Source: an uncultured Gammaproteobacteria bacterium
GTDB taxonomy: Bacteria > Patescibacteriota > Microgenomatia > Daviesbacterales > UBA10151
Reading direction: 5' to 3'
Length of the DNA: 64,000 bases
Assembly (NCBI GenBank): GCA_964406775.1
Contig: CAYOSW010000005.1
Span: forward strand, 1,362 to 65,361
Shown here: in pieces, positions 1,461 through 47,398 of the stretch
Layout of the letters: each line of letters starts with the position of its first letter
Numbering within the stretch: the stretch's first letter is position 1
Notes under the pieces: generated by a model
Told to the model about the DNA's origin: nothing
What the model saw: only the letters and a program-made list of their open reading frames with translations
The model's database searches: none
Made by a program: the position numbers and the translations under genes

Positions 1461-1626
1461 AATTTACGCTCAAGTATTTTACCAAACTCAAGCGTAAAGC
1501 ACAACCCATAGCATAGGTTGGAATAAACCAATAGTCCAATGTCAAATAAACCAATTCTCAATAATAAAGTAAATTGAGCTTTTGTATATTGGGTTATTTG
1601 TTTATCGGGTTATTAGTTTATTAAGT

Positions 1627-2912: not shown

Positions 2913-2914
2913 AT

Positions 2915-31008: not shown

Positions 31009-32370
31009 TTAACCCAACCATTGTTTCTTCAACTTTTTAAACTGTTTATCAATTATCGACTGTCTTATTTTTTTTACCAGATTGACCATAAAATATAAAT
31101 TGTGAATCGAAGCCAGACGGAAATAGAGGAGTTCTCGGGCAATGAATAAGTGACGAAGATAACTTTTTGAGAAATTTTGACAGGTATAGCAGCCGCATCC
31201 GGGATCAATAGGTTTGCTGTCATATATAAATTCGGAATTGCCGATATTTAAGACAAATTTATTCTTGAACTTTCCTCCGTTTTCCGGGGAAATATATAGC
31301 GAACCGTTGCGGGCGCGGCGGGTGGGGGCGACACAGTCAAACATATCGACTCCTTTTTCGATACATAGAAAAAAATCAACAACTTCGCCGATCCCTAAAG
31401 CGTGTCTGGGCCAGGAGTCGGGGAGGAGGGGAGTAACCCAACTCATTGTCTGCTCAATTGAACGGGTCGAAGCCCATTCAACTTCCGCAAACTCGGGATT
31501 TTTTGTAAGAGATTCCGACCAGAGAGGAGAGGTGCCGAAAGACCCGCCGATCGAAACCCCGTCAAAATCCTGTTTAGCAATCCATTTGGCTTCCTGCTCA
31601 CGGATCCTTCTGTCATCAACTCCTTGTAAAATGCCAAACAGACTTCCCTTTTTTTCACGGTTTTTTTTCACAATAGTCTTATAATATTTCTGACTGCGGA
31701 GTTCCCAACGGTGCGTGCGCTCTAAAGATTGTGCGACATAGGATTCCGAATGGAGTGGAGAAATCAGTTCGTCCAATACTAAAATGATATCCGCTCCTAG
31801 ATTGAATTGAATCTCAATACTCCGCTCCGGAGTCAGAAGGTGCTTTCCCCCATCAAGATGAGATTTGAACTCGACCCCCTCCTCCGTAATCTTGGATAAA
31901 GCTTTTACCGCTTCGGGCTTCACCTCAACGGTTACCCTTCTGTGGATCGTCTTGTTTTTAGTGTCATAAACTTTTCCGCTTTTCCTGACTTTTGGTTCCT
32001 CCTGATTCAGGATTCCTGATTTATGATTTAGCGGCTGACTCACTTTTTTTATTCCGTGTTCTATCATCGCGCCAAGCGAAAAAGCCTGGAATCCTCCCGA
32101 ATCCGTCAGGATCGGGCCGTCCCAACCCATAAATTTATGTAAACCGCCCATTTTCTTAATAAGTTCGGATGTAGGCCTTAAGTTTAAATGATAGGTATTT
32201 CCCAAAATTATCTCCGCTCCTAAAGTTTTCAAATCATCCGGAGTCAGAGACTTAACAGTGCCTTGAGTTCCGACAGGCATATAAACAGGTGTTTGCACCT
32301 TACCGTGGGGAGTAGAAAGAATTCCCGCTCTGGCCTGTCCGTCTTTTGCAATAGTTTTAAAAACCGCCAT
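31009..32370 (-). CDS. tgt: queuine tRNA-ribosyltransferase (with insertions)
   Basis: 453 aa ORF with Tgt motifs (LTDSGGFQ catalytic Asp region, and C-terminal zinc site CGCYTCQNFSKSYLRHL). Confidence 0.88.
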   Translation of the reverse strand: MAVFKTIAKDGQARAGILSTPHGKVQTPVYMPVGTQGTVKSLTPDDLKTLGAEIILGNTYHLNLRPTSELIKKMGGLHKFMGWDGPILTDSGGFQAFSLGAMIEHGIKKVSQPLNHKSGILNQEEPKVRKSGKVYDTKNKTIHRRVTVEVKPEAVKALSKITEEGVEFKSHLDGGKHLLTPERSIEIQFNLGADIILVLDELISPLHSESYVAQSLERTHRWELRSQKYYKTIVKKNREKKGSLFGILQGVDDRRIREQEAKWIAKQDFDGVSIGGSFGTSPLWSESLTKNPEFAEVEWASTRSIEQTMSWVTPLLPDSWPRHALGIGEVVDFFLCIEKGVDMFDCVAPTRRARNGSLYISPENGGKFKNKFVLNIGNSEFIYDSKPIDPGCGCYTCQNFSKSYLRHLFIARELLYFRLASIHNLYFMVNLVKKIRQSIIDKQFKKLKKQWLG

Positions 32371-33204: not shown

Positions 33205-34625
33205 TGCCCCGGAGACTCATCAAAATCCGCGTGCTGTTTAATCAGCTCAATCAGTTTTTCGTGTCTTCCCTGGTAATTCTCAATCTCTTCCTCAACATTC
33301 AACCTGAGCAGAGGTTCGGTATTGCTCATCCTTAAAGAGAATCTCCATTCAGGATACTGGACTGCTACCCCGTCAATTTCGGAAATCTCACCGTCTGCGT
33401 GGAGCTCTTTTAATTTTTCGATTATTTCTTTGGCATTTTTAACCCGGAAATTCATCTCACCCGACTCGCGGGAACGCTTAACATCTGATGCAAGTTCGGA
33501 AAGTTTTTTGCCCGTTTTAGTCATAGCATTTAAAACGTGAAGCAAAACAAGGAGAGGCCCTTCGGCATTTCCTGTGGCTTTAAAGAAATAATGCGCCGAT
33601 GATTCCCCAGCAAAAATCCCACCGCCTTTATTCATCATTTCGGTAATAAAAGCGTGGCCGACTTTCGTAATTACGGCTTCCCCACCCTCCTCTTCCGTAA
33701 CTCTTTTGGGAGTCATAATATATCTGATATCAAATAATATCTTTTCCCCTTTGTGTTCCCGGAGGAGTTCTCGGGCAACGATAGCCGTAATCTTAGAAGG
33801 GGATACCACCTCTCCCCTCTCGTCAATAAAAAATATTCTGTCGCCGTCTCCGTCCAACGCCAATCCCAAGTCAGCTTTCTCCTCTACTACTTTCTTTTGA
33901 ACATCTTCGTTGTTTTTAGGATCCAGGGGGTCTGCCGCGTGGTTCGGGAAAGTTCCGTCAAGTTCAAAATAGAGTTTTACCAATTCCCCCGGAATATGCT
34001 TGTATAGATGATCAATATATAAAGCCCCCATCGCATTTGCCGCATCGGCTACTACTTTATAGGAATTAATTTTCGGATGATCCATTATCTTTAAGGCATT
34101 CTGAACTTCGTTCTCCGTGACATTTTCAATTTGAGTTATCTTACCGCTACCTCTCGGCTCAACTTCAACACCTTCCGCCGCCATCTTCTTAATATCCTCC
34201 ATACCGGTCGGCTTCCCTACTTTAATAAGTCCCCCGTTTTTAGGATTAACGACAATCTTTAATCCGTTGTAATTTTTAGGATTATGGGAAGCAGTGATCT
34301 GGATTCCGGTGTCATATCCGCCTGAAAAAACCGCGTAATAAAAAGTCGGAGTCGAAACAAGTCCGGGGTCAATGACGTGAGCCCCTAAATTTACAAGAGT
34401 TTCGGTTACTGATTTAAATATTGCCGGGCTTGAAGCGCGCATATCCCGGCCGACGACGACCGTTAATTGTTCTTTATCGGGAAATTGTTTCAGGAAAAAA
34501 GAGTAAATTGCTTTTGCGGCAATGACAACATTGTCTTCATTGAGCTGATCAGGATATGTCCCCCTAATGTCGTAACTTTTAAAAATGCTTTCAGGAATAT
34601 TCATCTTTTTCTTTGAACTGCGCAT
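33201..34625 (-). CDS. phosphoglucomutase/phosphomannomutase (alpha-D-phosphohexomutase)
   Basis: 474 aa ORF with the active-site phosphoserine motif TASHNP, the metal loop DGDGDR and sugar-binding loops. Confidence 0.9.
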   Translation of the reverse strand: MRSSKKKMNIPESIFKSYDIRGTYPDQLNEDNVVIAAKAIYSFFLKQFPDKEQLTVVVGRDMRASSPAIFKSVTETLVNLGAHVIDPGLVSTPTFYYAVFSGGYDTGIQITASHNPKNYNGLKIVVNPKNGGLIKVGKPTGMEDIKKMAAEGVEVEPRGSGKITQIENVTENEVQNALKIMDHPKINSYKVVADAANAMGALYIDHLYKHIPGELVKLYFELDGTFPNHAADPLDPKNNEDVQKKVVEEKADLGLALDGDGDRIFFIDERGEVVSPSKITAIVARELLREHKGEKILFDIRYIMTPKRVTEEEGGEAVITKVGHAFITEMMNKGGGIFAGESSAHYFFKATGNAEGPLLVLLHVLNAMTKTGKKLSELASDVKRSRESGEMNFRVKNAKEIIEKLKELHADGEISEIDGVAVQYPEWRFSLRMSNTEPLLRLNVEEEIENYQGRHEKLIELIKQHADFDESPGH

Positions 34626-34784: not shown

Positions 34785-35318
34785 CTATTCCTTCTCCGCT
34801 AATTTTTCCAGTACCTTTTGCAGTACTTTTTCAGGCTTTAACTCTGTTGTATCAATAACCAGATCAAAGTATTTGGGATCCAAAAAATCCGAAACCCCGT
34901 ACAATTTATTGAATTTATCAACCAAGTCTTTGGCTCTTTGGACTGATAAATTTTTTGCTTCTTCTTCTGTTACCGAATCCCTCTTGGCCACTCTTTTATA
35001 TGCCTCACTATCTTCTACCGTGCAAAGAACTTTTAAAGTTTCCGCGTAATCTTTAGCCAGCCATCCTGCCAAACGGGATTCAAAAACAACACCGGATTTT
35101 TCCGCCATCTCCTTTTTAAAATCGGCTTCCATTTTCCTGTCTTCCTCTTCGGGGATTCCGTAAACTTTTGACACATCCATCCCCTGACCCGCATACCACT
35201 CGCGGAAATAATTTCCGGCACTGATATATTCCCAATCCAGTTTTTCGGACAAAAGTCTGGCTAAAGTCGATTTGCCTGTGCCGATATCTCCGGAGATTGC
35301 AACGTTTTTGAATTTCAT
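34785..35318 (-). CDS. cytidylate kinase-like P-loop NMP kinase
   Basis: 177 aa ORF with P-loop AISGDIGTGKST. Small NMP-kinase fold. Confidence 0.65.
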   Translation of the reverse strand: MKFKNVAISGDIGTGKSTLARLLSEKLDWEYISAGNYFREWYAGQGMDVSKVYGIPEEEDRKMEADFKKEMAEKSGVVFESRLAGWLAKDYAETLKVLCTVEDSEAYKRVAKRDSVTEEEAKNLSVQRAKDLVDKFNKLYGVSDFLDPKYFDLVIDTTELKPEKVLQKVLEKLAEKE

Positions 35319-35415
35319 TTTGTTTCTAATATGCCTTTCTTCAAAAAGGCAAGGTTCTGAGAGCGATGTGTTACTTAAACACAGCGCGAGCAGGTCCTTA
35401 TATTCTTGAATTTCA

Positions 35416-36282
35416 TTAGCCTAAACTATACCCCATATTCTCAAGCTCTGCCACAAAGTCATCACTCTTTTCGCTGTTACAGGCTTCACAAAACGGCATC
35501 ATACAGAAAGTAATTTCTTTATTCGTTAATATTTGACGGATCTTTTGACGGAAGACTTCTTCGACTTCCGATAAATTTTCCAGATCAAAATCTCGGGTAA
35601 AACTTTCATCTTTCGGATCCTGCCAAAAAACTACCCTGAATTTAGCTTTCTTATACCCTCGCTTCAGAAGATCTTCCGCGAGCAATAAGGTATAAAGTTT
35701 CGGCATCAAATCCATATCCATATTCATCTTTCCCTTGGCAATATCCTGGCGCGATTTATAATCAATGACTTCCGGAATTCCGTCTTGTCCTATCTCAAGC
35801 GTGTCCGGTCCTCCCCAAAGTTTATATTTTTCACCGTCTATCTCTATTACTTTTTGATAAAAACCGATATCCGTAATTTTCTTTTTAAATCTGCCTTCTA
35901 TTTGCCCGTAATAATTTTGGAGCACCTGTTCGGCAGCTAAAATCACTTCCTCTGTTAAAAATTCAACCGTTGCGGTGTTAAAATTCGGCCTCGGCTTACT
36001 CTTCTCTTCTTCTTTGATTTCTTCAGCGCTAAACCGCACTCCTTTCAGCAATCTTTTTAGTGGGTAATCATAAGCTGGGCGTTTGTGTATGTTTTTAATC
36101 GTCTTGTCCAGCAAAACCCCTAAGGCCATCTGAGGACTCCCCTTGCCGATTTCATATTTTTTGTCCAACTCGTGCTTGACCAGAAATTTGAATACACAAG
36201 TATCAAAATCGTGGAGATCTGAGAGTGAATAACCTCGGATTTTCGGTATGAAGTCAGAAGCCATAGGTTTGTATTGAAACAT
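35416..36282 (-). CDS. PD-(D/E)xK nuclease, Cas4/RecB-like, with 1+3 cysteine Fe-S pattern
   Basis: 288 aa ORF with EVIDYKS, which matches the (I/V)DYK(T/S) motif III of RecB-family nucleases. One N-terminal Cys (DTCVF) plus C-terminal C-x5-C-x2-C (FCMMPFCEAC). No CRISPR array nearby. Confidence 0.5.
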   Translation of the reverse strand: MFQYKPMASDFIPKIRGYSLSDLHDFDTCVFKFLVKHELDKKYEIGKGSPQMALGVLLDKTIKNIHKRPAYDYPLKRLLKGVRFSAEEIKEEEKSKPRPNFNTATVEFLTEEVILAAEQVLQNYYGQIEGRFKKKITDIGFYQKVIEIDGEKYKLWGGPDTLEIGQDGIPEVIDYKSRQDIAKGKMNMDMDLMPKLYTLLLAEDLLKRGYKKAKFRVVFWQDPKDESFTRDFDLENLSEVEEVFRQKIRQILTNKEITFCMMPFCEACNSEKSDDFVAELENMGYSLG

Positions 36283-36295
36283 ATTTTATGGTATT

Positions 36296-36832
36296 TTGCA
36301 TAAAATGCCAAAACTACCCGGTATACTTTTACTCCTTTTGTTATTAGTTATCTCCACACCAGCCGTTTATGCCCGGATTACTCCTGAGGATATTTATAAT
36401 GAAAAAAGGCAGGCTTACGAAAGTAAAAGACAAACCTATTCGCTTGAAAACCAGAAAAAACTCGATGCTTATGAAAAAGAGATAAAAAGCTTAAACAGCT
36501 TTATTACTTCCGAACTTGAAAACAATACCTTAAGACAGGGCGAAATTCTGGACGAATACATTATCAGGAATAATATTCCCACAGTTCCCGAGACTGACGG
36601 TATAAAAAGAAATCTCGATGATCCGGTCGAGAATGCCAGGTATTGGATCACTTATGCGCACGAGGCAATCGCGTTTCAGGCTGCAAAAAATTATTTATTC
36701 GGATTGACCGGCGAAACAAGTATTAACAAGGATATTATTATTCAGATTCAGGCTCTTCAGGCTGACACAGGAGTTCTTAAAGGCAAGGTCGAGAAATCCA
36801 AACAAGCACTGATTAAACTTTTAAATAAGTAA
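36296..36832 (+). CDS. secreted coiled-coil protein
   Basis: 178 aa ORF with a signal-peptide-like N-terminus (LLLLLLLVISTPAVYA) followed by a charged, helix-prone region. Confidence 0.45.
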   Translation: MHKMPKLPGILLLLLLLVISTPAVYARITPEDIYNEKRQAYESKRQTYSLENQKKLDAYEKEIKSLNSFITSELENNTLRQGEILDEYIIRNNIPTVPETDGIKRNLDDPVENARYWITYAHEAIAFQAAKNYLFGLTGETSINKDIIIQIQALQADTGVLKGKVEKSKQALIKLLNK

Positions 36833-37125
36833 TGAACACTAAAGCCGTCATTGCAGTAATAATAGTTGCGGTCCTCATAGGAGTTCTTTACGTAATGTTT
36901 GAAAAAAGCTTTACGGCCTCAGGCGACCTGAGTCAGGCACCAACCACTTCAGAACAGGTGGCAACAAAACTTCCCGATCAGCCCGATACAACAGTGTTGC
37001 CCACACCTGAACCTACACTCCCGCCCATCGATAAAAACTCTAACCTTGCTGAGGAAGCCGCAGCTCTGCAAATGCGGGATTATTCGGGGATGTTTGAAGA
37101 TTTAAAAAGCAAAGTCAGCAAATGA
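36832..37125 (+). CDS. small membrane protein with Pro/Thr-rich tail
   Basis: 97 aa ORF with one TM helix and a PT-rich linker. Start overlaps the stop of the upstream gene (ATGA). Confidence 0.4.
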   Translation: MNTKAVIAVIIVAVLIGVLYVMFEKSFTASGDLSQAPTTSEQVATKLPDQPDTTVLPTPEPTLPPIDKNSNLAEEAAALQMRDYSGMFEDLKSKVSK

Positions 37126-37850
37126 GAATCCTCCTTTTCGGAAAAAACTCCGATTCAATCCGCCACCTTTTACCTATACACGGTCTGGAAGCAGTTGAAG
37201 ACAAGCCTGATGTGATTATTTCCTACGGCGGAGACGGTACACTACTGTCGGCTGAGAGAAAATTTCCGGGAATTCCCAAACTACCCATCAGAGATAGCAA
37301 GGTTTGCAAAAAATGTTCCCTGCATACTACTGAAACCCTGCTTGAGACTCTATCTAAAAATATTCTGCGCTTTAAATTATATCCTAAGTTAGAAGCTAAA
37401 TCAGGCTCAAGCACCGATATTTTGGCCATTAACGATATTGTCATCCGCAACAGCACGCCAATGCACGCTTTAAGATTCAGCGTTTTTTTAAACGGGGTGC
37501 AAGTTGAACCTAAAATAATAATCGGCGACGGCATTGTCGTTACAACACCTTTCGGCTCAACCGGCTACTATAAAAGCATTACGAGAGATACAATAACTTC
37601 CGGATTCGCCTTTGCTTTTAACAACACCACAAAACCGATCAAGCCTGTCAAATTTACGGCGATTCAGGATGTTAAGGTCTTAATTATCCGTGGACCCGGA
37701 TCGCTATCATCTGATAACAACCCGAAGATTTATCCTCTGAAGGAGCAGGACTGGGTAAAAATTTTTGCTTCCCCGCATAAAGCCCATATTTTTATGGATA
37801 CTCTCCGTTGTGAAGATTGCGTAGTTTTGCGCGACAAGAGACTGCGCTAG
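37122..37850 (+). CDS. nadK: NAD+ kinase
   Basis: 242 aa ORF with the GGDGT motif (VIISYGGDGTLLSA), NE/D and the conserved C-terminal beta region. Confidence 0.85.
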   Translation: MRILLFGKNSDSIRHLLPIHGLEAVEDKPDVIISYGGDGTLLSAERKFPGIPKLPIRDSKVCKKCSLHTTETLLETLSKNILRFKLYPKLEAKSGSSTDILAINDIVIRNSTPMHALRFSVFLNGVQVEPKIIIGDGIVVTTPFGSTGYYKSITRDTITSGFAFAFNNTTKPIKPVKFTAIQDVKVLIIRGPGSLSSDNNPKIYPLKEQDWVKIFASPHKAHIFMDTLRCEDCVVLRDKRLR

Positions 37851-38845
37851 CGGTGAGCCGCCACATTGGCATTATGTTCTTCTAAAGTCTTAGCGTAATA
37901 CGAATTACCCTGAAGGTCGTGATAATAATAGAGATAAGGTGTCTCTGCATCCGCATCGGCAACTGCCTGAAGCGACATCAGTGAAGGATTGGCTATCGGA
38001 CCTGGAGGGAAGCCGTTGTTGGTATATGTATTGTAGGGCGAGACCACAGCCTGATAATCCGAAACAAGTACCGGCTGCCAAAACTTCTCAAGATTTCCGT
38101 TTTTTAACTTTTGAGTATCTTTAGCGTATTGAACTGTTGCATCAGCATCCAGCTTCATCCCCATCTTGAAACGCTTTAAAAGTATCCCGGCAATCTTTGT
38201 ACGGACTTCCTTACTCCTACCTTCTCTTTCAACAATGGACGCTAAAATTACGCCCTGCTCCGGAGTTAAACCGCGCGCTTTAATTTTCTGCTGAAGCTCG
38301 GCTGTATACTTCCGGTCAAAAGTAGCACGGAGAGTTTGAATGATGGTATCGATGCTTGCATCGGGATGAAAAAAATAGGTGTCGGGAAAAAGATATCCTT
38401 CCTCGTCTTTCGCTTTTTGTAAAAATTCCTCGCCGTCTATTTTCATCACCTCACTTAAAGCCCTTGAAACCTGCTCTACTCTCCACCCTTCAATTAAAGT
38501 AACCCTTATGTCCGCAGAACCGCCTTCGAATGTTTCAATAATCTGCGAATTATTCATAGCCGGCGAAACTATAAAATCTCCCGCATTTATACCCGTAAGT
38601 CCTGCATCTTTGGCATTCATTTTAAAATACCAGGCAGACCGGATAACCCCTGCTTTTTCCAGATTGGAAGCTACATCCGAAACCGTTTCCCCCGGATCTA
38701 CAACAAAAGCAATCTCCTTTCCTTTAGGATCAACCGGACCCTGTAAGTAGCCCAAAAACCCTTTGACAGCAAAAAAACCGATAATAATCAAAACAATCAG
38801 AGACAATACTGCCCGGCCTGCGCCGGATTTTCGTTTTCTTTCCAT
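37847..38845 (-). CDS. mltG: endolytic murein transglycosylase MltG (YceG family)
   Basis: 332 aa ORF with an N-terminal TM anchor and YceG motifs (EGYLFPDTYFF, LASIVEREG, SPYNTYTNNGFPPGPIANPS). Confidence 0.88.
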   Translation of the reverse strand: MERKRKSGAGRAVLSLIVLIIIGFFAVKGFLGYLQGPVDPKGKEIAFVVDPGETVSDVASNLEKAGVIRSAWYFKMNAKDAGLTGINAGDFIVSPAMNNSQIIETFEGGSADIRVTLIEGWRVEQVSRALSEVMKIDGEEFLQKAKDEEGYLFPDTYFFHPDASIDTIIQTLRATFDRKYTAELQQKIKARGLTPEQGVILASIVEREGRSKEVRTKIAGILLKRFKMGMKLDADATVQYAKDTQKLKNGNLEKFWQPVLVSDYQAVVSPYNTYTNNGFPPGPIANPSLMSLQAVADADAETPYLYYYHDLQGNSYYAKTLEEHNANVAAHR

Positions 38846-38863
38846 ATAAATTATTATTAACTC

Positions 38864-39259
38864 TTAAGCTACAGAGTCTAAAAAATTTTGCAGAATGATA
38901 ACTGCCGAATAAGCGTCTTCTTTTTTCCGGGACTTCTCACTCATTCCCAGATCAATCATCATATCCTTTGCCGAACTTGAACTTAAAGTTTCATCAACTT
39001 CAATTACCGAAACCTGCTTTTCTCCGAGATCTGTTTTGAGTTTTGCGATAAATTTTTTGACCGCGCTCCTTGACTCCCCGCTTTCGGCCACACCGATAAT
39101 AACCCGGCCGATTTCCTCCTTTTGAATAACGCTTAAGATTTTATTTACGGCATCGGCAAGTCCCGAAATTTCAATAACCTTAAGCGGCGAAGCAATCTGT
39201 CCTTCCGAAAGAGCAAGACCTATTTTCTTCAAACCGTAATCGATCCCGAGATAACGCAT
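38864..39259 (-). CDS. ruvX: Holliday junction resolvase-like protein RuvX/YqgF
   Basis: 131 aa ORF starting MRYLGIDYGLKKIGLALSEG, which is the RNase H-fold YqgF signature. Confidence 0.9.
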   Translation of the reverse strand: MRYLGIDYGLKKIGLALSEGQIASPLKVIEISGLADAVNKILSVIQKEEIGRVIIGVAESGESRSAVKKFIAKLKTDLGEKQVSVIEVDETLSSSSAKDMMIDLGMSEKSRKKEDAYSAVIILQNFLDSVA

Positions 39260-39269
39260 TTAGAAGAAA

Positions 39270-39521
39270 TTATACATTAATTTCCAGTTTTAATACCTGA
39301 ATTTTAGTCTCCCGTTTCCAACTTTTTATTTCCGCTTCCCTTTTTAAGGCCTCGGACTTACTTTCAAGTTCTTCCGAATATATTATTTTTACCGGAGGAT
39401 GGGAGCGGGTATAGCTTCCGCCTTTGCCCCTTTCGTGATCTTTAAATCTCTTTTCCAGGTTATTTGTTAATCCTGTATAAAGACTTTGATCCGAGCATAA
39501 GAGTATATAGACAAACCACAT
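39270..39521 (-). CDS. GIY-YIG nuclease superfamily protein, YhbQ/UPF0213-like
   Basis: 83 aa ORF starting MWFVYILLCSDQSLYTGLTNNLEKRFKDHERGKG. Second YhbQ-like paralog in the window. Confidence 0.8.
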   Translation of the reverse strand: MWFVYILLCSDQSLYTGLTNNLEKRFKDHERGKGGSYTRSHPPVKIIYSEELESKSEALKREAEIKSWKRETKIQVLKLEINV

Positions 39522-39522
39522 A

Positions 39523-40560
39523 TTAACGCAATAATTTTCCTGCGGCAGTATCGACCGACTTTAGGCAATATTCTTTATCTGAATCTGATAATTGACTGCA
39601 AACATTTAACGCCCCGTCTTTATCGTACACCGTTACCACCGCAATCACTCCGTTGATGCAATTTTTACGGTCATCTTCAGTCCCGGTACACAGCAGATCC
39701 GGCTTTATCTCTCCTCTTCGGACCGGCTGGGCAAAAGCAAACCCCAGGCCGTTAAAACATCCGCTCCTCTCTGTCCCATCGGCTATCAATGAGCAGGAGT
39801 GACTCACCTCTTTATACGGCACGCGGCTGTAGTTATATAGAAGCTTGTACCGGTAACACGCAGCGGGAGAGCCGAGACCGGCACAGGGCTCCTCAAACTG
39901 CGGATTTTTATCCGTATTTTCGGTAAAATACTGCATAAATACACCGTTGTCACAGTCAAAAACCTGCTCAGGATCTTTGAAATCATCACAATAAGAAAGC
40001 GCTTTCTTTAAATTATTTTCGGACAATGCGAAAAGCGCGTGACCTATACCGTGAGGACAAATCCCGCTACCGCCTTTTACCGATTTCCCGCTTTTAGAGC
40101 AGACATCCCTAATTATTCCTCCCAGCTGATCAATTGCGATATGCCCGTCCGCTGATGTTCCTTTTTTGCCTATCTCTGCAGTAAACGCCCCGGATATTAC
40201 TCCGTGCAGACAACCATAGGTGCATTTATCCGAGCAAATAAGCATTGCCTGCTCGATATCATTTGTTTTCTGATAAATTACCCGGCCGATGTTATGACCT
40301 TTAATATGGCATTGGGATTCACTGCCGACCGCCTCCAGCATTTTTTCCGGACCCAGCAAATCATAATATTCATCAATAATCTTAACCGGAATCTCCTGCC
40401 TGCCTGCCTTTGAGCTGATTTGCTTAAAAGCGATAAGAGCTTCCTCAGTATCTTTCCCTTTTCCGGGGATTAACTTATTTAAAATAAAAAACACCCCTGC
40501 CAGGCTCAAAAAAACTATCGCAAAAACTAAAACTGCCGGTTTATATCCGATCTTCTTCAC
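39523..40560 (-). CDS. membrane-anchored extracytoplasmic cysteine/histidine-rich protein
   Basis: 345 aa ORF with one N-terminal TM helix followed by about 20 cysteines and several CxxxC/HG patterns (CTYGCLHG, GICPHGIGHA). Confidence 0.45.
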   Translation of the reverse strand: MKKIGYKPAVLVFAIVFLSLAGVFFILNKLIPGKGKDTEEALIAFKQISSKAGRQEIPVKIIDEYYDLLGPEKMLEAVGSESQCHIKGHNIGRVIYQKTNDIEQAMLICSDKCTYGCLHGVISGAFTAEIGKKGTSADGHIAIDQLGGIIRDVCSKSGKSVKGGSGICPHGIGHALFALSENNLKKALSYCDDFKDPEQVFDCDNGVFMQYFTENTDKNPQFEEPCAGLGSPAACYRYKLLYNYSRVPYKEVSHSCSLIADGTERSGCFNGLGFAFAQPVRRGEIKPDLLCTGTEDDRKNCINGVIAVVTVYDKDGALNVCSQLSDSDKEYCLKSVDTAAGKLLR

Positions 40561-40607
40561 AAAGCTATCATAGGGGAAAACTTCGAAGCGATCAAAGAGG
40601 GCTGCAC

Positions 40608-41096
40608 TTACGGAGTATAAGAATTCAAAGGATCAATTTTAGGTACAAGCTCCGTTATCGCCCGGATTGTATCTCTTGGCCTATAAATACTGCCTTCCTC
40701 GGGGAGCTGTAGGCCTTTTCGGGATAAGTTTTGCGTAGTCCAAATCGTATACGCACCTATCTCATTTCCCGCCCTGATTTCCTCCTCCAGATTATCACCA
40801 ACCACTGCACTCCCCTGAGGCTCCACACCCATTCCCACCAAAAGAGCTCCGAAATCCTTCCTCGGTCTGCCTGATCTGAAATCTAAGATCTCCACTGTCG
40901 AGAAAAAACGGGTTAAACCAAAAGCGGCTAATTCATCTTCCCTGGAACTTGCATACCGGGCAATAGTAACTAAAGCCAGTCTGATTTCACGGTCTCTTAA
41001 CTGCTGGAGCACATCAACAACCCCTGGAAAGAGTTGTTTTGTGTCAGGATTGCCTAAAGTTCTGCCGAAATCAAACACCACCGCTTCAATTTTCAT
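40608..41096 (-). CDS. HAD-superfamily hydrolase
   Basis: 162 aa ORF with HAD motif I DFGRT (VVFDFGRTLG) at the N-terminus and a motif IV-like GDN. Confidence 0.7.
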   Translation of the reverse strand: MKIEAVVFDFGRTLGNPDTKQLFPGVVDVLQQLRDREIRLALVTIARYASSREDELAAFGLTRFFSTVEILDFRSGRPRKDFGALLVGMGVEPQGSAVVGDNLEEEIRAGNEIGAYTIWTTQNLSRKGLQLPEEGSIYRPRDTIRAITELVPKIDPLNSYTP

Positions 41097-41228
41097 CGGA
41101 GGATTATACTAAAGAGGATCAATAGAGTCGCAGTTTACGGTTGCGGGGAGTGGAACAGATTAGGAATTGTTTTCTTGCATAGTATAATTTGCCGTTAGTA
41201 ATCATTAATATATTCGGATAATAATTAG

Positions 41229-42215
41229 ATGAAAGAACCTGGATCTGGTAAGCAAATTAATTTTTTAGATGGCTATCAACTAGTATCAGTTAGAAGTGGA
41301 TACAATAACGAAATTGGTATTTGGGAACAACCAGAAAAACCACGAATTGTTACCCGGAAGCTCAGAGAAATGGGTTCTGAATATGCTGATTTATCTGTAC
41401 TATCCCCCTCTTTAAGTCCCGATAAGCTAGAGAAAGAATTCGTATTACTCAGATTCCTTGAAGGTCGACACCTGCCGATAGCAAGGTGTCTCTATCATGA
41501 GCCGTCCATATCAGTATATGAGTGGGCCGCTGGGAAAGAACTTGATTTTGAAGAGTTTAAACAACACCCTATCAAACAAAGGGTAACAATGGGAACTAAC
41601 TTGGGCGGATTTTTAGGAAAATTTCATAACTCACAGAAAAGTAGCGAAGGCCAGAAATTGATCAATCAGGTTCCGGGTCAATTTGGCCATACTACTCTTA
41701 GAGAAAAACATCTGTGGAGGCTTGATTCAAGTATTAGGTATTTAGAACAACAAGGGGCAATCGATGGAGATACGGCAAAAAGAGTTAGGACCCTAGGAAC
41801 AAGTCGGATCAATCAAGTTCCAGAAACTTCATTTAGAGTTATCCATGGAGATTTATATTCACGAAACATATTTATAGATCCTAATAATTTCGACATTACT
41901 GCTGTTATAGACTGGATTGATGCATCAGAGGTAGATGATCCTTACGCAGATTTACTCTTAACGGCAAGGTGGTATGGTTTTAATGATGATTTAACAGATC
42001 TTGATCTCCAATCGAATAGAGATTCTTTCTATAGTGTTATTCGAGGATATGAAGACCTAACCCACACTAAGGTAGAACAGGATCCACTAGAATTGTTTAA
42101 AACTTATGATTTATTGTGGCATATGAGGGTTTTGGTTGCGGAACAAGCTAAGAGAAATAATCAAATCGTAAAACAGTTTGGAGCAACACTACATAACCTT
42201 CTAAAACAAATGTAA
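41229..42215 (+). CDS. aminoglycoside/choline-kinase-family phosphotransferase (APH fold)
   Basis: 328 aa ORF with the Brenner motif HGDLYSRNIFID and IDWIDASEVDDPYADL (the D of DFG-equivalent). Markedly AT-richer than its neighbours. Confidence 0.7.
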   Translation: MKEPGSGKQINFLDGYQLVSVRSGYNNEIGIWEQPEKPRIVTRKLREMGSEYADLSVLSPSLSPDKLEKEFVLLRFLEGRHLPIARCLYHEPSISVYEWAAGKELDFEEFKQHPIKQRVTMGTNLGGFLGKFHNSQKSSEGQKLINQVPGQFGHTTLREKHLWRLDSSIRYLEQQGAIDGDTAKRVRTLGTSRINQVPETSFRVIHGDLYSRNIFIDPNNFDITAVIDWIDASEVDDPYADLLLTARWYGFNDDLTDLDLQSNRDSFYSVIRGYEDLTHTKVEQDPLELFKTYDLLWHMRVLVAEQAKRNNQIVKQFGATLHNLLKQM

Positions 42216-42287
42216 TAGTATTTCTCAAAGATCGTTCGTTGAATGCCTAACCTACTATTTTACTGTAATAATTGAAGCTAAAATACT

Positions 42288-42305
42288 TGGTTGCGGGGAA
42301 TGGAT
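42288..42305 (-). repeat. partial direct duplicate of the tRNA-Met 3' end (att-like)
   Basis: ttgcggggaatggat (15 nt exact, 42291-42305) repeats the 3' acceptor/T-arm end of tRNA-Met at 42416-42430, about 110 bp away and in the same orientation. Confidence 0.5.
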
Positions 42306-42370
42306 GAATACGAATTTGCTGCGCAAATTTCCGAACCAAATCAGAGATTTGCTTGAATCCACCGTCCCAG

Positions 42371-42412
42371 AAAAAAAGAAAAATCCCGCAAATGCGGGAT
42401 GGGTTTTCTTTT
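42371..42412. terminator. bidirectional intrinsic terminator
   Basis: aaaaaaagaaaa-atcccgcaaatgcgggat-gggttttctttttg. This is an 8-bp GC stem flanked by an A-tract upstream and a T-tract downstream, so it works on both strands. Serves the APH gene on the plus strand and tRNA-Met on the minus strand. Confidence 0.6.
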
Positions 42413-42414
42413 TG

Positions 42415-42486
42415 TTGCGGGGAATGGATTCGAACCATTGACCTTGAGATTATGAGCCTCACGAGCTACCACTGCTCTACCCCGCG
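42415..42486 (-). tRNA. tRNA-Met (anticodon CAU), initiator-like
   Basis: The reverse complement folds as a cloverleaf CGCGGGG-TA-GAGC-AGTGGTA-GCTC-G-TGAGG-CTCATAA-TCTCA-AGGTC-AATGG-TTCGAAT-CCATT-CCCCGCA-A. It has a C1:A72 mismatch as in initiator tRNA. CCA is not encoded. Confidence 0.85.
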
Positions 42487-42505
42487 AGTGAATTATACTC
42501 CTAAG

Positions 42506-42859
42506 CTAGTGAAGAAACAACCTTAGCCAGCCTTGCCAGTTCGGAATTTTAATTTCAGGGGGTTTAACATCGGGGGTCAGAACCTTATCCACCATTTCCT
42601 GGGGAATAATTACAACTGTTTCGTTCGGAAGCGACATATTTAAGTCGTTCCGGGCAATTTCCTCTACGGAATCATAGCTTTCAGCCTGGGCCAGCTCTTT
42701 TTTTAGCTGTTTATTGTCCCTTTCAAGGCTTCCGACATCCTCCAGTAACTGGTTCAAACGTTTGTCACTGCCCAAAGCAAACGAGATCTGCTTGACCAAT
42801 CCGATCAAGATGACAATAGCCACAATAATAATAACTATGACAGACAATTTTTTATACAT
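42506..42859 (-). CDS. FtsB/DivIC-like septum formation initiator
   Basis: 117 aa ORF with an N-terminal TM helix, a coiled coil (LLEDVGSLERDNKQLKKELAQAE) and an ARNDLNM motif as seen in FtsB/DivIC. Confidence 0.6.
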   Translation of the reverse strand: MYKKLSVIVIIIVAIVILIGLVKQISFALGSDKRLNQLLEDVGSLERDNKQLKKELAQAESYDSVEEIARNDLNMSLPNETVVIIPQEMVDKVLTPDVKPPEIKIPNWQGWLRLFLH

Positions 42860-43017
42860 TTGGATTACTATTGCGTTATGAACTCATCATTTAATGCGTA
42901 TTTCCCAAAACCTGCTTTCAGATCAAAAAAATCCCTTTTCACCGCTTCAATTTAATCCTATAATTATTATTCATTACTTGACATTCGGTTTGCTAAATTA
43001 TAATATTATGGGACATT

Positions 43018-43887
43018 ATGATTAGCCTTAAAGACGCACATCAGCAGTTCGTTGGCCATTTAAAGGGCAGAAACCGGGCTGCAGCTACAATTCTAGCTTA
43101 CGGTAAAGACATTGAGCAACTCATTAACTTTTTAGTTTCAAACGGAAGAGAGATGTCTGAGAGTGTTTTGACCGAAGATTTAAAGCTTTTTATGGATAAA
43201 TTGAGCAAGGAAAACTACACTCCTAAATCAATTTCCAGAAAAACCAATTCGACAAAAACTTTCTTTAAATTCTTAAAAACTTCAAATTTGATCCCGGATG
43301 ATCCGGCCAGATCCTTAGAACACCCTAAATTTGAGAATAAACCGCCGAGAATCTTATCCGAACTTGAATACCGGGCGTTAAGGGACGCTTCCCGCTCCGA
43401 TTTAAGAATGTTTGCGATCATCGAACTTTTCCTGCAAACCGGAATCAGAATCGGAGAACTTGCCAAACTTCAGGTTGGTGATGCGGATCTTGATTCCAGT
43501 TCACCTTCCCTGCACATCCGCCCGGAAGAAGGAACAGTCGAAAGAACCATTCCCTTGAATAAACCTGCAGTTGAATCCATCAGAAAATACTTACAGGTCA
43601 GACCTCAAACAGCAAACCTGGCACTGTTTGTCACCAAAACCGGAAAACCTTTACTTATAAGAAACATCAGAACCGCAATCGACAGATATTTCCGCCTTGC
43701 AGGTATTAAAGAGGCCAAAGTTAATGATTTAAGACACACCTGGATTGCTCATCACTTAAAGGCAGGAACTTCTCTGCTCTTAATTTCTAAATTGGCCGGA
43801 CATAAAAGAGTTTCTACTACCGAAAGATATTTACAATTCATTCAGGGAAAAACTACCGAAGGTAAAATCACCCTCGACGAACTCTAA
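43018..43887 (+). CDS. tyrosine recombinase, XerC/XerD-like
   Basis: 289 aa ORF with the catalytic signature R (GIRIGEL), LRHTWIAHHL (the H-x-x-R box) and TTERY (the Tyr nucleophile). Its size and N-terminal core-binding domain are typical of Xer recombinases. Confidence 0.85.
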   Translation: MISLKDAHQQFVGHLKGRNRAAATILAYGKDIEQLINFLVSNGREMSESVLTEDLKLFMDKLSKENYTPKSISRKTNSTKTFFKFLKTSNLIPDDPARSLEHPKFENKPPRILSELEYRALRDASRSDLRMFAIIELFLQTGIRIGELAKLQVGDADLDSSSPSLHIRPEEGTVERTIPLNKPAVESIRKYLQVRPQTANLALFVTKTGKPLLIRNIRTAIDRYFRLAGIKEAKVNDLRHTWIAHHLKAGTSLLLISKLAGHKRVSTTERYLQFIQGKTTEGKITLDEL

Positions 43888-43899
43888 ACCCACAAACTT

Positions 43900-44403
43900 A
43901 TGTCCAAAGATATAATCAGGCCTCCGATGCCGGAAAGAAGTGTTATTGTACCTGTAGAAAGCTTTGGTATGCTACGAAGAGAAGATTTGACACCAGCTTT
44001 CCACCTCTTTGAATACAGGTTTGCGCAACTTACTAGATATATCATTGGGCGTGACTACAAGGGACCTGCATTACCTGAAGGAGTTCAAGAAGTACACAGC
44101 AGAATCCTGGCAGCAGAGGATTCACTGACTCCTGATGGACAGCTCGTAGGATATGCAAAAGTAGGTTATCAAACTCATAATCCAAATGACAAATATTTAG
44201 GCATTGCTTTCGATGGCAAAAGGGGTGTTTTTGCTCAAGCTGAACCTCGATATACCCATCCTGATTTACCATCCGGAATAGATGCATATCATCCTGGATT
44301 TGAGTATTTAGAAATGAATTACTATCCAACCGGAAGTGAAGTTGATTTAGGTAAATTATTAGGAATCCAAGAGAGATTCCAGTGTTTTGTACCTAATCAA
44401 TGA
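43900..44403 (+). CDS. hypothetical protein
   Basis: 167 aa ORF directly downstream of the recombinase. No motif recognised. Confidence 0.4.
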   Translation: MSKDIIRPPMPERSVIVPVESFGMLRREDLTPAFHLFEYRFAQLTRYIIGRDYKGPALPEGVQEVHSRILAAEDSLTPDGQLVGYAKVGYQTHNPNDKYLGIAFDGKRGVFAQAEPRYTHPDLPSGIDAYHPGFEYLEMNYYPTGSEVDLGKLLGIQERFQCFVPNQ

Positions 44404-44894
44404 TTCAAGGTCATTAAAAGTTTATTGTATTCCTTGCTTATTTCCAGATCTTCAAATCCTAATTTTCTATAAAGGGCAACGGCCGGCTCGTTCTCAGGCG
44501 AAACCGAAAGCCAGAATTTCGGATGAGGGTGTTTTTTATATTCTTCCGAATCTTTAAAATCAGCCATAACCTCTTCCGTAAACGGAAGCGCCAATCCTTT
44601 TCCGCGCGCCTTACCGTACAAACGGATAGCAAATGAGATTCCGTATTCTGAAGGGCTCTCCCGGTTTAAATAAAGATCCAAGTCGTGGAACCAGATTATT
44701 CCCAGCAGATTATCTTCATCATCAACCAGAGTATAGTAACTAAGAATTTCTTTTGAGAATTCGTCGAAGCTTTCCCTATTTTTAAATCTCTTCGGATCGG
44801 ATGTATATTTTAATCCTTCGTCAGTTGCCGCGTAATTTATGAGTTGGGAAATCTGCTTATCGGTAATGCCTTTTTTAATTTTGTAATCTTCCAT
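44397..44894 (-). CDS. GNAT-family N-acetyltransferase
   Basis: 165 aa ORF with an acetyl-CoA-binding motif-A-like segment (RLYGKARGKGLA) and the C-terminal YRKLGF motif typical of GNATs. Confidence 0.6.
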   Translation of the reverse strand: MEDYKIKKGITDKQISQLINYAATDEGLKYTSDPKRFKNRESFDEFSKEILSYYTLVDDEDNLLGIIWFHDLDLYLNRESPSEYGISFAIRLYGKARGKGLALPFTEEVMADFKDSEEYKKHPHPKFWLSVSPENEPAVALYRKLGFEDLEISKEYNKLLMTLNH

Positions 44895-44953
44895 AAGATC
44901 TCCCCTCCATAACTTGTTTTGATATCACGCTTGCCGTAAAATATCAACATTCT

Positions 44954-45028
44954 GCGCGGATAGCTCAGCGGTAGAGCGGTTGTCTTATACACAATTGGTC
45001 CCAGGTTCAAATCCTGGTCCGCGCACCA
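44954..45028 (+). tRNA. tRNA-Ile with anticodon UAU
   Basis: Cloverleaf GCGCGGA-TA-GCTC-AGCGGTA-GAGC-G-GTTGT-CTTATAC-ACAAT-TGGTC-CCAGG-TTCAAAT-CCTGG-TCCGCGC-A-CCA. It has a 7-bp acceptor stem, U33 and A37 flanking anticodon TAT, and an encoded CCA. Confidence 0.8.
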
Positions 45029-45031
45029 AAT

Positions 45032-47398
45032 TTAAAGTCGTGCCCGTTCTGAAATATTTGCCTCAACCGCGGCCCGGTCTCTCCCGTATGTCAGCCTGGA
45101 TAGTTCGCGTATCGCCCGCCCGACTTCAGGACGGCGCATTTTTTGCCATTCCTCATAGGACGGGAATGTCGTGTCTACGGAGAAAGGATGAACGGGCTCT
45201 CCCTGCACCTGGGTTTTTACATAGATGTGGCGCGCTTCAATATTAACCAGATCCTGCTCATTAAAAGTAGGCGCAAACTCGTGCTGGAGGAAGTTGGCAT
45301 CGGTGACACCGACACGGAAAGCGATCACCGTACCGACGTTACCGAAAACGGCATTTTTTAACTCCTCGCCTATCTGACCTATAAATTGGTTAGCGACGGT
45401 TAAATTCAGCTTATATTTACGCGCCTCGGCCAAAATTTCAGCAAAAGTGTCGGTTGCGAAGTTTTGGAACTCATCAACGTACAGGAAAAAGTCGCGTCTT
45501 TGTTCCTGAGGAATATCGGTTCGGCTCATTGCAGCGGCTAAAATCTTCGGAACCAGAACCAGCCCTAAAAAGTTTGAATATTCATCCCCGATCCTCCCTT
45601 TTGATAAATTCACAATCAGAATCTTTCCCTGGTCCATAACCTGACGCAGATTGAACGAAGAGACAGATTGGCCGATGATATTTCTCATCATCATATTGGT
45701 AACAAACCGCCCGAACTTTGATACGTTATAATCCAAAATTTCCGATTTATGGAATTCTGCAGTTTGGGCAATCTGGTCGGTCCAATACCTGCGGACAACC
45801 GGATCCTGAACGTAGGGCAAAAGCTCCTTTACGAATTCCGGATCAGTCAAAACACGTACCACCTCAAGAAAAGTATTGCCGGGTTTACTCATACAGGTCA
45901 GCATCGCATTACGGACGTTATGCTCAAACCTCGGCCCGATAATACCGGTTTTATGAGGATCATAAAGCTTGTACATCAGTCCGATGATTGAAGCAACCAC
46001 AAAGTGTTTTTGCTCCTCGGTTGTGGCTTCAAGCATATTCAAACCGAAGGGGCGGGCAGAATCAGAGGGGTCAAAATAAATTACATCCTGGGCGCGGTTG
46101 GGCGGAATCCTCTCCAACATATCTTCCGCCGCATCTCCGTGGGGATCAATAAAACAAATACCCCGACCGGCATAAATATCCTGAATCATCATAGACTTTA
46201 AAAGCTCGGTTTTTCCGGTACCGGTTCTTCCGATGATATACATATGCCTTTGACGGTCAAAATCGGAAATAAACACCGGCCGTTCCTGACCCCGGAATTT
46301 CGATTTACCGATATAAAGACCTTTTGTCGGAATTTTTTCAGGAGGAGGGGCCGATTTGGCGGGAAGCCACTGAATATGCGGAGTTTCAACTTGTTTATTC
46401 GGTAAGTGGAAAAGCGAGGAAATCTCGTCCGCAGTTAAAACGGAAAGTTTATCAAATCTGGGTAGATATCTGTAAACAAAATCTCTGATAAAGCCTTTTT
46501 GTGAAGGAATTTTGGCTCCAGTAAAGCCGTTATACGGCCCGTTAAACTGCTCAAAAGCCGCTTTAATGTTGCCTAAATGAGCCTTAGCGGCTTCCTCCGA
46601 AGTCGAGGATGTAACAATCCGAACTATGGTTGAAAATCCGGCTTTAGTTATCTTTCCCTCGACTGCCTCAAGCTGTTTCTGATCCGGAGGAGCTTTCGGC
46701 TTCTCACCGTCTCCCGGATCGCGCTCCTTTTTCAGGAATTTCTTTCCCGAATTCTTAAAGTCATCGCCTGCAGGAGCTATAAGTAATTGAATTACCGCCC
46801 CTTCTCCCTGCTGCATTTTTCCGAGTGCTGAGGTAATACCTGATAACGGATCTGTCGGAAGCTCCTTATAAGTTTTTATCGGAAAATAATCGGAAGATTT
46901 AAGTTTGTAAGCGGTATAGGCAACCTTGCCGGTTTCCGAAAAAATATTATATTCAGGAACTTCTTTTACCGATGCGTCCGGATATGCTCCGTTGATTTGT
47001 TTTTCAATTAAATCCTGGTATTTTTTATGGCAGGCGACGTAAAATCTGATCGATTCCGGCAGCGCCACAATCTCAAAGGCAATATGAGGTTGGGGCTTTA
47101 AGTCCTTAAACATCCCCAAAAATCCTCCCGCTCCGATTTTTATGGAATACAGAGCTGAGATAAACTGCTCGGCCGCGTCAATTTTTACTTCATTGGCCTT
47201 AGGAACGGTAATTTGCAGCAGTACAAACCCCAATGAATATTTCTCCCGCTCCCGGTATTTATACAGATTCTTAAAATATGGATAAAAATATATCAAAAAA
47301 CCAATCAGAATGAGTGTTCCGAACAGGGCGACTAAAACCAAAACTGCAAAAAACAATAAGTCCGGTCCCTGAGCAACAGTAGTTTGAGTAACTTCCAT
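45032..47398 (-). CDS. membrane-anchored FtsK/HerA/TraD-superfamily P-loop ATPase (type IV coupling-protein-like)
   Basis: 788 aa ORF. Two N-terminal TM helices, Walker A HMYIIGRTGTGKTE and Walker B FFLYVDEFQNF. The architecture resembles VirD4/TraG/TraD coupling proteins. Family assignment is tentative. Confidence 0.5.
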   Translation of the reverse strand: MEVTQTTVAQGPDLLFFAVLVLVALFGTLILIGFLIYFYPYFKNLYKYREREKYSLGFVLLQITVPKANEVKIDAAEQFISALYSIKIGAGGFLGMFKDLKPQPHIAFEIVALPESIRFYVACHKKYQDLIEKQINGAYPDASVKEVPEYNIFSETGKVAYTAYKLKSSDYFPIKTYKELPTDPLSGITSALGKMQQGEGAVIQLLIAPAGDDFKNSGKKFLKKERDPGDGEKPKAPPDQKQLEAVEGKITKAGFSTIVRIVTSSTSEEAAKAHLGNIKAAFEQFNGPYNGFTGAKIPSQKGFIRDFVYRYLPRFDKLSVLTADEISSLFHLPNKQVETPHIQWLPAKSAPPPEKIPTKGLYIGKSKFRGQERPVFISDFDRQRHMYIIGRTGTGKTELLKSMMIQDIYAGRGICFIDPHGDAAEDMLERIPPNRAQDVIYFDPSDSARPFGLNMLEATTEEQKHFVVASIIGLMYKLYDPHKTGIIGPRFEHNVRNAMLTCMSKPGNTFLEVVRVLTDPEFVKELLPYVQDPVVRRYWTDQIAQTAEFHKSEILDYNVSKFGRFVTNMMMRNIIGQSVSSFNLRQVMDQGKILIVNLSKGRIGDEYSNFLGLVLVPKILAAAMSRTDIPQEQRRDFFLYVDEFQNFATDTFAEILAEARKYKLNLTVANQFIGQIGEELKNAVFGNVGTVIAFRVGVTDANFLQHEFAPTFNEQDLVNIEARHIYVKTQVQGEPVHPFSVDTTFPSYEEWQKMRRPEVGRAIRELSRLTYGRDRAAVEANISERARL

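Follow-up and report, generated by a model that had tools for sequence, protein, structure and literature searches.

Copies of an initiator tRNA-Met 3' end as probable junctions of successive site-specific integrations in a Candidatus Daviesbacteria genome fragment

In a 64,000-nucleotide stretch of contig CAYOSW010000005.1 (GenBank assembly GCA_964406775.1; hereafter the window), which derives from Candidatus Daviesbacteria of the candidate phyla radiation (CPR), an initiator-type tRNA-Met gene is followed on its own strand by two displaced copies of its 3' end, and the three copies together delimit two units in tandem, one of 124 bp without open reading frame (ORF) and one of 1150 bp with a kinase gene. 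In our view, each of these copies probably marks a recombination junction, the product of repeated site-specific integration into the 3' portion of the tRNA gene. This reading is carried by the repeats themselves, by a polymorphism between strains located at the repeats, by the recurrence of such repeats in the lineage and by elements that bring their own recombinase to the same site in relatives.

The tRNA gene (tRNA-Met(CAT), 42414-42486, minus strand; detected by ARAGORN, 64.3 bits against Rfam RF00005, with a C1:A72 mismatch) is full length and intact, lies at one boundary of the array and is the integration target, i.e. the attB side that is now attL. Its 3'-terminal 16 nt constitute the first copy, DR1 (42414-42429, minus strand; ATCCATTCCCCGCAAC in tRNA sense), which in tRNA numbering extends from T-loop nt 59 through the 3' strands of the T-stem and acceptor stem and the discriminator to one base beyond, C74. 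The second copy, DR2 (42290-42305, minus strand), reproduces DR1 exactly and forms the junction of the two units. By sequence comparison within the window, the identity spans 16 nt (GTTGCGGGGAATGGAT, 42290-42305 = 42414-42429) and near-identity extends to 18 of 19 positions (42287-42305 against 42411-42429), with a start-to-start spacing of 124 nt and 108 bp in between. The original prediction had reported this repeat of the tRNA 3' end as 15 nt long and on the same strand, which holds apart from its length, and had placed the copy within the tRNA at 42416-42430, which is off by one: the 15-mer TTGCGGGGAATGGAT occurs exactly twice on the plus strand of the window, at 42291-42305 and at 42415-42429. 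A third, degenerate copy, DR3 (41140-41155, minus strand; GTTGCGGGGAGTGGAA, in tRNA sense TTCCACTCCCCGCAAC), makes up the outer boundary of the array and differs at two positions from the resident tRNA and at one from the CCACT allele of sister species. All three copies are co-oriented, DR2 (16/16) and DR3 (14/16) lying downstream of the tRNA gene on the same strand. In tRNA orientation, which runs from right to left on the plus strand, the order is DivIC, tRNA-fMet with DR1, a 108-bp body, DR2, a 1134-bp kinase segment, AATTCCTAATCTG, DR3 and a HAD-family hydrolase gene. As had been suggested earlier, one edge of the kinase segment is marked by the repeat, and the third copy marks the other, but the repeats bound two tandem units with three copies and not a single segment. 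No repeat copies were found beyond DR3 in the intergenic DNA of 35000-41139, so on present evidence the island cannot be extended to the HAD gene and the hypothetical gene.

Comparison with other strains, which had been proposed as a check, revealed a presence/absence polymorphism with breakpoints that coincide with the repeats. Three same-species contigs from other samples were used, with identical Xer or DivIC proteins and flanks of 94-98% nucleotide identity (loci are designated L001, L002 and so on). Homology between L001 and the window extends to 41154, at the end of DR3, and starts again from the 3' end of the tRNA (42413); between these breakpoints L001 has 174 bp of unrelated sequence, without the kinase, versus 1258 bp in the window. 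It carries a degenerate repeat beside the HAD gene together with a different, longer ORF-less unit. Another strain (L006) retains the tRNA, the same 108-bp body and DR2, followed by unrelated DNA, its homology stopping at 42278, about 12 nt past the outer edge of DR2.

The same pattern recurs among relatives, for which 79 loci, mostly of Candidatus Daviesbacteria (CPR/Patescibacteria), were retrieved by means of the Xer protein. In 55 initiator-tRNA loci, 26 copies of the 3' 16-mer (at most three mismatches) were counted, 26 of them downstream of the tRNA and 0 upstream. As a control, 16-mers of tRNA-Met recurring in their own locus (at most two mismatches) were scored by their origin within the gene, giving 2 from the 5' part, 0 from the middle and 16 from the 3' part. 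The copies track the species-specific T-stem alleles (CCATT, CCACT, CCCAC, CCAAC, CCGGC, CTGGC), arrays comprise one to four units (four in L028 and L027), copies are absent from many relatives, and there is high variability in the DNA that follows the tRNA. The reading of the repeat as an att-like footprint of site-specific integration is therefore supported both by the strain breakpoints at the repeats and by this recurrence downstream of the tRNA.

The repeat could in principle be fortuitous or stem from local slippage, without any mobile element involved. The original prediction had dismissed chance on the ground that a chance 15-mer is very unlikely in 64 kb, which is a weak argument: 15-nt repeats are not rare in the window, where 11 distinct direct-repeat pairs of at least 15 nt were found and base shuffles yield about three repeated 15-mers. 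However, three matches to the 15-mer with at most two mismatches were found in the window versus 0.12 expected, and all copies are downstream and co-oriented. It is the position and orientation of the repeat, together with the comparative data, that rule out chance; the control with the three parts of the tRNA, the 26:0 count and the strain breakpoints effectively refute both chance and slippage, to which we assign a negligible probability.

Two types of unit can be distinguished at this site. Units of type A are miniature and ORF-less; those of type B measure 0.6-6 kb, contain one to seven ORFs and end distally in (A/G)TTCTAAYnnn followed by the repeat. Type B cargo consists of toxin-antitoxin pairs, Fic, PIN-like proteins, membrane proteins and two different APH kinases, and the kinase unit of the window (41140-42289, minus strand, 1150 bp: a 1134-bp body at 41156-42289 plus DR3) belongs to it. 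The larger members point to an enzyme. A large serine recombinase, absent from the window, is encoded beside the att site in six related contexts that are independent and span three CPR lineages: L050, L086 (6.8 kb), L087/88, L089-91 (5.1 kb), L142/143 (Gottesmanbacteria, 6.2 kb) and L144 (Levybacteria). In L050, a 6057-bp unit between the tRNA and the distal repeat encodes it at 1495-3189. The protein has Resolvase, Recombinase and zinc-ribbon domains, and the 3' end of its gene runs antisense into the tRNA 3' end, as in every context inspected. The recombinase ORFs of L050, L086, L089, L142 and L144 end in codons from the antisense tRNA 3' end (...N-T-T-V-L-R-G-stop), and with tRNA-derived last codons the enzyme would have a different C-terminus in the excised form than in the integrated one. 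Distal repeats with a TTCTRA arm are present in L050, L086, L089 and L142, and C-terminal recombinase remnants adjoin repeats in L027 and L028. The family counts 593 homologues at E < 1e-20, in Daviesbacteria, Gottesmanbacteria, Levybacteria and other Microgenomates, and the elements that bear it (5-7 kb) also carry primase-like and DnaD-like replication genes and helix-turn-helix regulators.

The distal arms of the type B units are consistent with the site architecture of such enzymes. In 18 of 19 distal junctions, including L050, L086 and L089, TTCTAA starts 17 nt ahead of CCCCGCAA, while the T-loop TTCGAA starts 12 nt ahead of it, so that the element arm is shifted 5 bp outward. The DR3 junction of the window fits the 17-nt spacing: the distal, P-arm-type arm of the kinase unit (41156-41168, minus strand; AATTCCTAATCTG in tRNA sense) has its TTCCTAA 17 nt ahead of CCCCGCAA. 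Its tRNA-proximal arm (42265-42289, minus strand; CAAGTATTTTAGCTTCAATTATTAC in tRNA sense) resembles sequence that comes after repeat copies in L015, L028 (unit 4) and L009. In serine integrases, the motif for the zinc-ribbon domain is shifted between attP and attB (Rutherford et al., PMC3783163), and as the 5-bp shift matches this published one, the crossover likely falls within the invariant CCCCGC, inside the CCCCGCAA block, to judge from the alignment of the junctions.

The original prediction had pointed to a Xer-type recombinase some 500 bp away. This Xer-family tyrosine recombinase gene (43018-43887, plus strand, 289 aa; Pfam/NCBIfam) indeed lies 532 bp from the tRNA 5' end, and it could be thought to catalyse the insertions, either like the elements that exploit XerCD/dif or like an integron integrase with its array. 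In favour of such a role are this proximity, the conservation of the tRNA-fMet/DivIC/Xer neighbourhood even in the Gottesmanbacteria and Levybacteria with recombinase-bearing elements, and a weak similarity to XerA and integron-integrase models. Against it, the protein scores about 150 bits with XerC, XerA and XerD models, below their cutoffs, and 61 bits with the integron-integrase model, for which the cutoff is 265; no dif-like dyad with a spacer of 6-8 bp is seen in the repeats; a serine recombinase is supplied by the intact elements at the site themselves; and the Xer-DivIC pair is syntenic in the majority of the 79 loci and in every one at the Daviesbacteria level, with arrays and without. 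The gene is best read as a core chromosomal recombinase outside the mobile units, its proximity to the tRNA reflecting ancient synteny. A role in the insertions is very unlikely, and in annotation the gene should not be called the island integrase.

In the integration mechanism that we propose, an attP composed of a distal arm, a tRNA-like core and a proximal arm would recombine with the 3' part of the initiator tRNA gene; for the P0001-family recombinase, the predicted attP reads ...GGTTCTAACAGC + CTCCCGCCCCCGCAAC + ACAGTGGTATTGGAAGC... The element's own copy of the core would restore the tRNA and the displaced copy would stay at the far end, repeated integration would stack units and push older elements downstream, and decay or internal deletion would remove the recombinase. 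The kinase cassette would in this way be the outer, older unit and the type A unit the inner, newer one, also supplying the tRNA terminator; an exact DR2 and an outer DR3 with two mismatches fit such a newest-inside order. As neither unit of the window encodes a recombinase, both would be decayed or non-autonomous, and whatever mobility they retain would probably depend on an enzyme acting in trans. On the sequence of its distal arm, the kinase unit was most likely inserted by a large serine recombinase, or is a deletion derivative of an element inserted in this way.

The kinase is the only ORF of at least 50 aa that lies wholly between DR1 and DR3. It encodes an APH-fold phosphotransferase of 328 aa (41229-42215, plus strand; Pfam PF01636, E = 7e-15) with weak similarity to an aminoglycoside phosphotransferase structure, on the strand opposite to the tRNA, and is bracketed precisely by DR2 and DR3. 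Only three homologues (43-56% identity) were found among 5.8 billion proteins, and there is no counterpart in the 79 related loci. A homology search returned an identical kinase protein (P0121) on one NCBI contig, and exact-protein look-ups of the kinase and HAD proteins gave no exact-match record. The unit has a GC content of 0.365 versus 0.436 and 0.40 in its flanks; of the skew boundaries that had been suggested as a diagnostic, what remains is this modest AT-richness, since the flip in GC skew merely tracks the coding strand. In annotation, the APH-family kinase is best treated as strain-specific acquired cargo.

The 124-bp unit (42290-42413, minus strand), made up of the 108-bp body at 42306-42413 and DR2, belongs to type A, a second family of units, which are conserved, 100-210 nt long and ORF-less and share the architecture found in the window. 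Homologues adjoin tRNA-fMet in L001, L006, L008, L010 (two), L011, L012, L014, L017, L018 and L028, and consist of a replacement terminator, an inverted degenerate repeat copy, two hairpins and then the repeat. In the window, the unit starts with a bidirectional intrinsic terminator hairpin (42383-42400, both strands), confirming the terminator noted earlier in the enclosed segment; it is predicted to end the tRNA transcript and, on the opposite strand, the kinase transcript. It is followed by the L motif (42351-42370, minus strand; CTGGGACGGTGGATTCAAGC in tRNA sense), a degenerate inverted copy of the tRNA acceptor-3'/T-arm that is conserved in type A units and supported by the inverted repeat, a multi-unit alignment and pattern cross-matches to antisense tRNAs. 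Then come hairpin hp1 (42338-42350; AAATC TCT GATTT), a T-arm-like GGTTCGG motif (42331-42337, minus strand, tRNA sense) and hairpin hp2 (42313-42329; AATTTGC GCA GCAAATT), with a 7-nt linker to DR2. We also considered whether the unit is a decayed tRNA copy and rejected this: pairwise alignments in sense or antisense are individually insignificant (p 0.04-0.9), those with the antisense tRNA being weak one by one (p 0.04-0.6), and the inverted L motif is the one part consistently recognisable. A metagenome scan for the short type A pattern GGATTC..GTTCG..ATCCNNNCCCCGCAA gave 44 matches, all of them spurious (mostly on high-GC contigs, and never preceded by a tRNA 3' end that matched), and the same pattern had one spurious match in viral contigs.

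A number of findings weigh against successive integration as the full account of the locus. No recombinase gene lies between the repeats and no tblastn match to the serine recombinase was obtained anywhere in the 64-kb window, which makes mobilisation of its units in trans something that we infer. An excised circle or empty site was not seen for this species. Around the three kinase homologues (contexts L093-L097), neither a tRNA nor a repeat was found nearby, nor any similar cassette, and thus there is no evidence that the cassette travels as a unit. Of the att site the left arm alone is clear, the geometry of the right-hand half-site being inconsistent across loci; a symmetry based on TTCGAC, which comes after the repeat in many loci, was rejected for its inconsistent offsets and not used as evidence. 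Other points concern type A. The 124-bp unit has no TTCTAA arm and would be very short for excision as a circle. Type A is the tRNA-proximal unit in 5 of 5 mixed arrays, and the type A repeat is exact in 9 of 11 genomes versus 1 of 14 for type B (Fisher p = 2e-4); neither is predicted by simple accretion in random order.

These last points could indicate that the 124-bp unit is a functional structured element and not a mobile remnant, be it an RNA (in the tRNA 3' trailer or in the kinase 3' untranslated region) or a folded-DNA site, with a repeat that is kept identical to the tRNA by selection, e.g. because it protects the gene as a second landing pad or forms a tRNA-like minihelix. Besides the constant proximal position and a repeat that stays exact despite differing T-stem alleles, this is favoured by an architecture that is conserved over variable sequence: hp2 is a perfect 6-8 bp hairpin with differing stems in 11 of 12 type A units (per-sequence shuffle p 0.001-0.08), and the equivalents of hp1 show compensatory changes (GGATC/GATCC, CGATC/GATCG). 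In predicted folds, the L motif pairs with the repeat to close the structure (z-scores of -1.2 to -3.3), and the left half is about 91% identical between the window and L010, whose core genes are about 75% identical. On the other hand, a Rfam 15 scan of 38000-47000 (E <= 1) matched the two tRNAs and nothing for the 124-bp unit, and there is no promoter between the strong terminator and the unit. The closing helix shows no clear covariation with the T-stem in five sequences, which are too few for this, and its middle is not maintained. The unit is wholly missing from many relatives, and it behaves like mobile or recombining DNA, occurring in short and long forms within one species (short in the window and L006, long in L001), in tandem in L010 and as a mosaic in the window, with similarity to L010a over the left 80 nt and to L010b in the right part, joined at GGTTCGG. 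On balance we regard a purely functional origin as unlikely. Nevertheless, site-specific integration explains the 124-bp unit only partly, and the conserved hairpins, the constant position and the exact repeat leave room for a functional role that it may have.

The 124-bp unit could also have been made by a tyrosine integrase or by another enzyme acting in trans, such as a transposase or casposase-like enzyme generating a 16-bp target-site duplication. Casposons insert at a tRNA 3' end with duplications of 14-15 bp. A target duplication would automatically produce the observed exact match of the repeat to the T-stem allele of the host. For tyrosine integrases, the 3' end of a tRNA gene is the classical target (PMC4383910). 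But the ends of the unit lack terminal inverted repeats, and no transposase, casposase or second tyrosine recombinase was detected in any array examined. In L027, furthermore, type-A-like distal arms occur on cassettes that start with serine-recombinase remnants, which links both arm types to the same enzyme class. We consider this origin quite improbable.

In a more speculative extension of the serine-recombinase reading, which has a rather small chance of being correct, the single initiator-tRNA gene of Daviesbacteria and neighbouring CPR bacteria would anchor a cassette-capture platform run by large serine recombinases. Recombinase-less cassettes (kinases, toxin-antitoxin, Fic) would keep both arms and be shuffled in trans by the 5-7 kb replicative elements with an attP overlapping the recombinase stop. 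The 124-bp unit would be a functional structured module, which could serve as a folded landing pad or as an insulator; with the target present in duplicate, insertions would no longer endanger the essential tRNA. The same process could drive the unusually fast turnover that the T-stem shows between close relatives.

Several features of the tRNA gene and its surroundings were recorded alongside. The initiator-tRNA T-stem has at least eight alleles among close Daviesbacteria with Xer proteins of 70-93% identity, which is considerable variation for such a tRNA; speculatively, incoming elements that replace its 3' end could contribute to it. In L010, L026, L037, L042, L047, L051 and L057, tRNA-fMet, with its array if present, is inverted relative to DivIC-Xer, and the array or tRNA 3' end abuts the DivIC 3' end, where in the window the tRNA 5' end does so. 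The initiator tRNA-Met is split just before the anticodon by an apparent group I intron (GATATAGTC...AGTAATG motifs, judged by eye) in L012, L015, L022, L026, L027, L034, L037, L041, L044, L045, L047, L055, L081, L087 and L142; ARAGORN misses such interrupted genes, and the tRNA of the window is intron-free. Elsewhere in the window, two further exact direct repeats stand out among those of at least 15 nt, the 20-mer TTTTTTGCAACTTTTTTCTC (8166-8185 and 11981-12000) and the GC-rich 17-mer GAGGAGTTCTCGGGCAA (31126-31142 and 33762-33778).

The array is flanked on its outer side by the HAD-family hydrolase gene (40608-41096, minus strand; Pfam), which in the locus comparison is common to the window and L001 only, and on the tRNA side by the conserved core genes DivIC (42506-42859, minus strand; Pfam/NCBIfam) and Xer. 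Between Xer and a GNAT acetyltransferase lies a 167-aa hypothetical gene (43900-44403) without Pfam match, which is present in L003/L004, replaced by about 30 bp in the conspecific L001 and missing in L002, a second small presence/absence polymorphism. A tRNA-Ile gene with anticodon TAT (44954-45028) is located downstream of Xer in nearly all relatives, in an orientation that varies among the 79 loci; in the conspecific L002 (1979-2052), the 78-bp gene is inverted, 98.7% identical and set in other immediate flanks. A UAU-anticodon tRNA-Ile is unusual in bacteria, where CAU with lysidine is the norm. Small GIY-YIG proteins of about 80 aa are encoded near the tRNA-fMet region in the window (39270-39521) and in many relatives, often accompanied by a repeated GC-rich motif (ACTTCGACTCGCTTCGCTCGCTCAGTGCAGGCAC, CCTGAGCGATGGTGAGCGTAGTCGAACC) that also takes the place of hp2 in the unit of L014.

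The genomes of CPR bacteria are very small, with few mobile elements on record, and this locus shows a route by which accessory genes enter one such genome, namely an initiator-tRNA hotspot fed by small replicative elements that use a serine and not a tyrosine recombinase. The analysis also yields predicted attB and attP sites for a large, uncharacterised recombinase family, which might serve as integration tools.

Among known systems, Islander-type tRNA/tmRNA islands (PMC4383910) share the intact tRNA at one end and the displaced direct 3' fragment at the other, the supply by the island of a replacement 3' end (here also of a terminator) and the presence/absence between strains. They differ in size, the units of the window being very small (124 bp and 1.15 kb), and in their enzyme: the integrase that is found inside Islander islands is lacking from the units of the window and present within the elements of L050, L086, L089 and L142, where it is a large serine recombinase and not the usual tyrosine integrase. 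With the serine-integrase attP/attB systems (A118/LI, Bxb1, phiC31; PMC3783163) the elements share the Resolvase, Recombinase and zinc-ribbon organisation, the catalytic domain of the relatives' recombinase resembling that of the SPbeta integrase, and, as far as the aligned junctions suggest, a shared motif whose distance from the centre is 5 bp greater in the element arm than in the host arm. Here, however, the target is a tRNA, the identity block of 9-16 nt contrasts with the typical short common core (PMC10654092), and the recombinase gene overlaps attP with its own final codons. In mycobacterial prophages, tRNA sites are used by tyrosine integrases, and serine integrases use short cores elsewhere (PMC10654092).

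Non-autonomous integrated elements with flanking att sites (CIMEs; background in PMC5704250) likewise encode no recombinase of their own and can lie next to related elements in a tandem arrangement. Described CIMEs are, however, far larger than the 124-bp unit, and mobilisation in trans is putative here. Integron cassette arrays are similar in their short units of one to three ORFs (0.6-1.4 kb), repeated recombination sites and cargo rich in toxin-antitoxin genes, but here there is no IntI, attI/Pc or attC and the recombinase is of another class; cassette genes lie on both strands without orientation bias, and the junctions are copies of the tRNA 3' end and not attC palindromes. An integron was accordingly rejected, on the Xer score of 61 bits against a cutoff of 265 and the lack of attC-type sites, and so were the Xer-exploiting integrative elements (IMEX), the repeats being tRNA acceptor/T-stem sequence without a dif-like dyad of two 11-bp arms and a 6-8 bp spacer.

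The closest described analogue are the tycheposons and tandem arrays of Prochlorococcus (bioRxiv 10.1101/2020.12.28.424599), which share a streamlined host, repeated integration at one tRNA that pushes older elements outward, partial tRNAs and fragmented integrases scattered in the island, and replication genes on cargo elements (here the primase and DnaD-like proteins); large serine recombinases are encoded by some tycheposon-type elements, a minority of them (10.1101/2020.12.28.424599). They differ from the present arrays, which have a CPR host, an initiator tRNA as target and an ORF-less structured mini-unit without described counterpart there. The event itself is of a well-known kind, an att-type scar with tandem accretion at a tRNA hotspot, and what is unusual lies in its details: the CPR host, the link to a serine recombinase and the ORF-less mini-unit.

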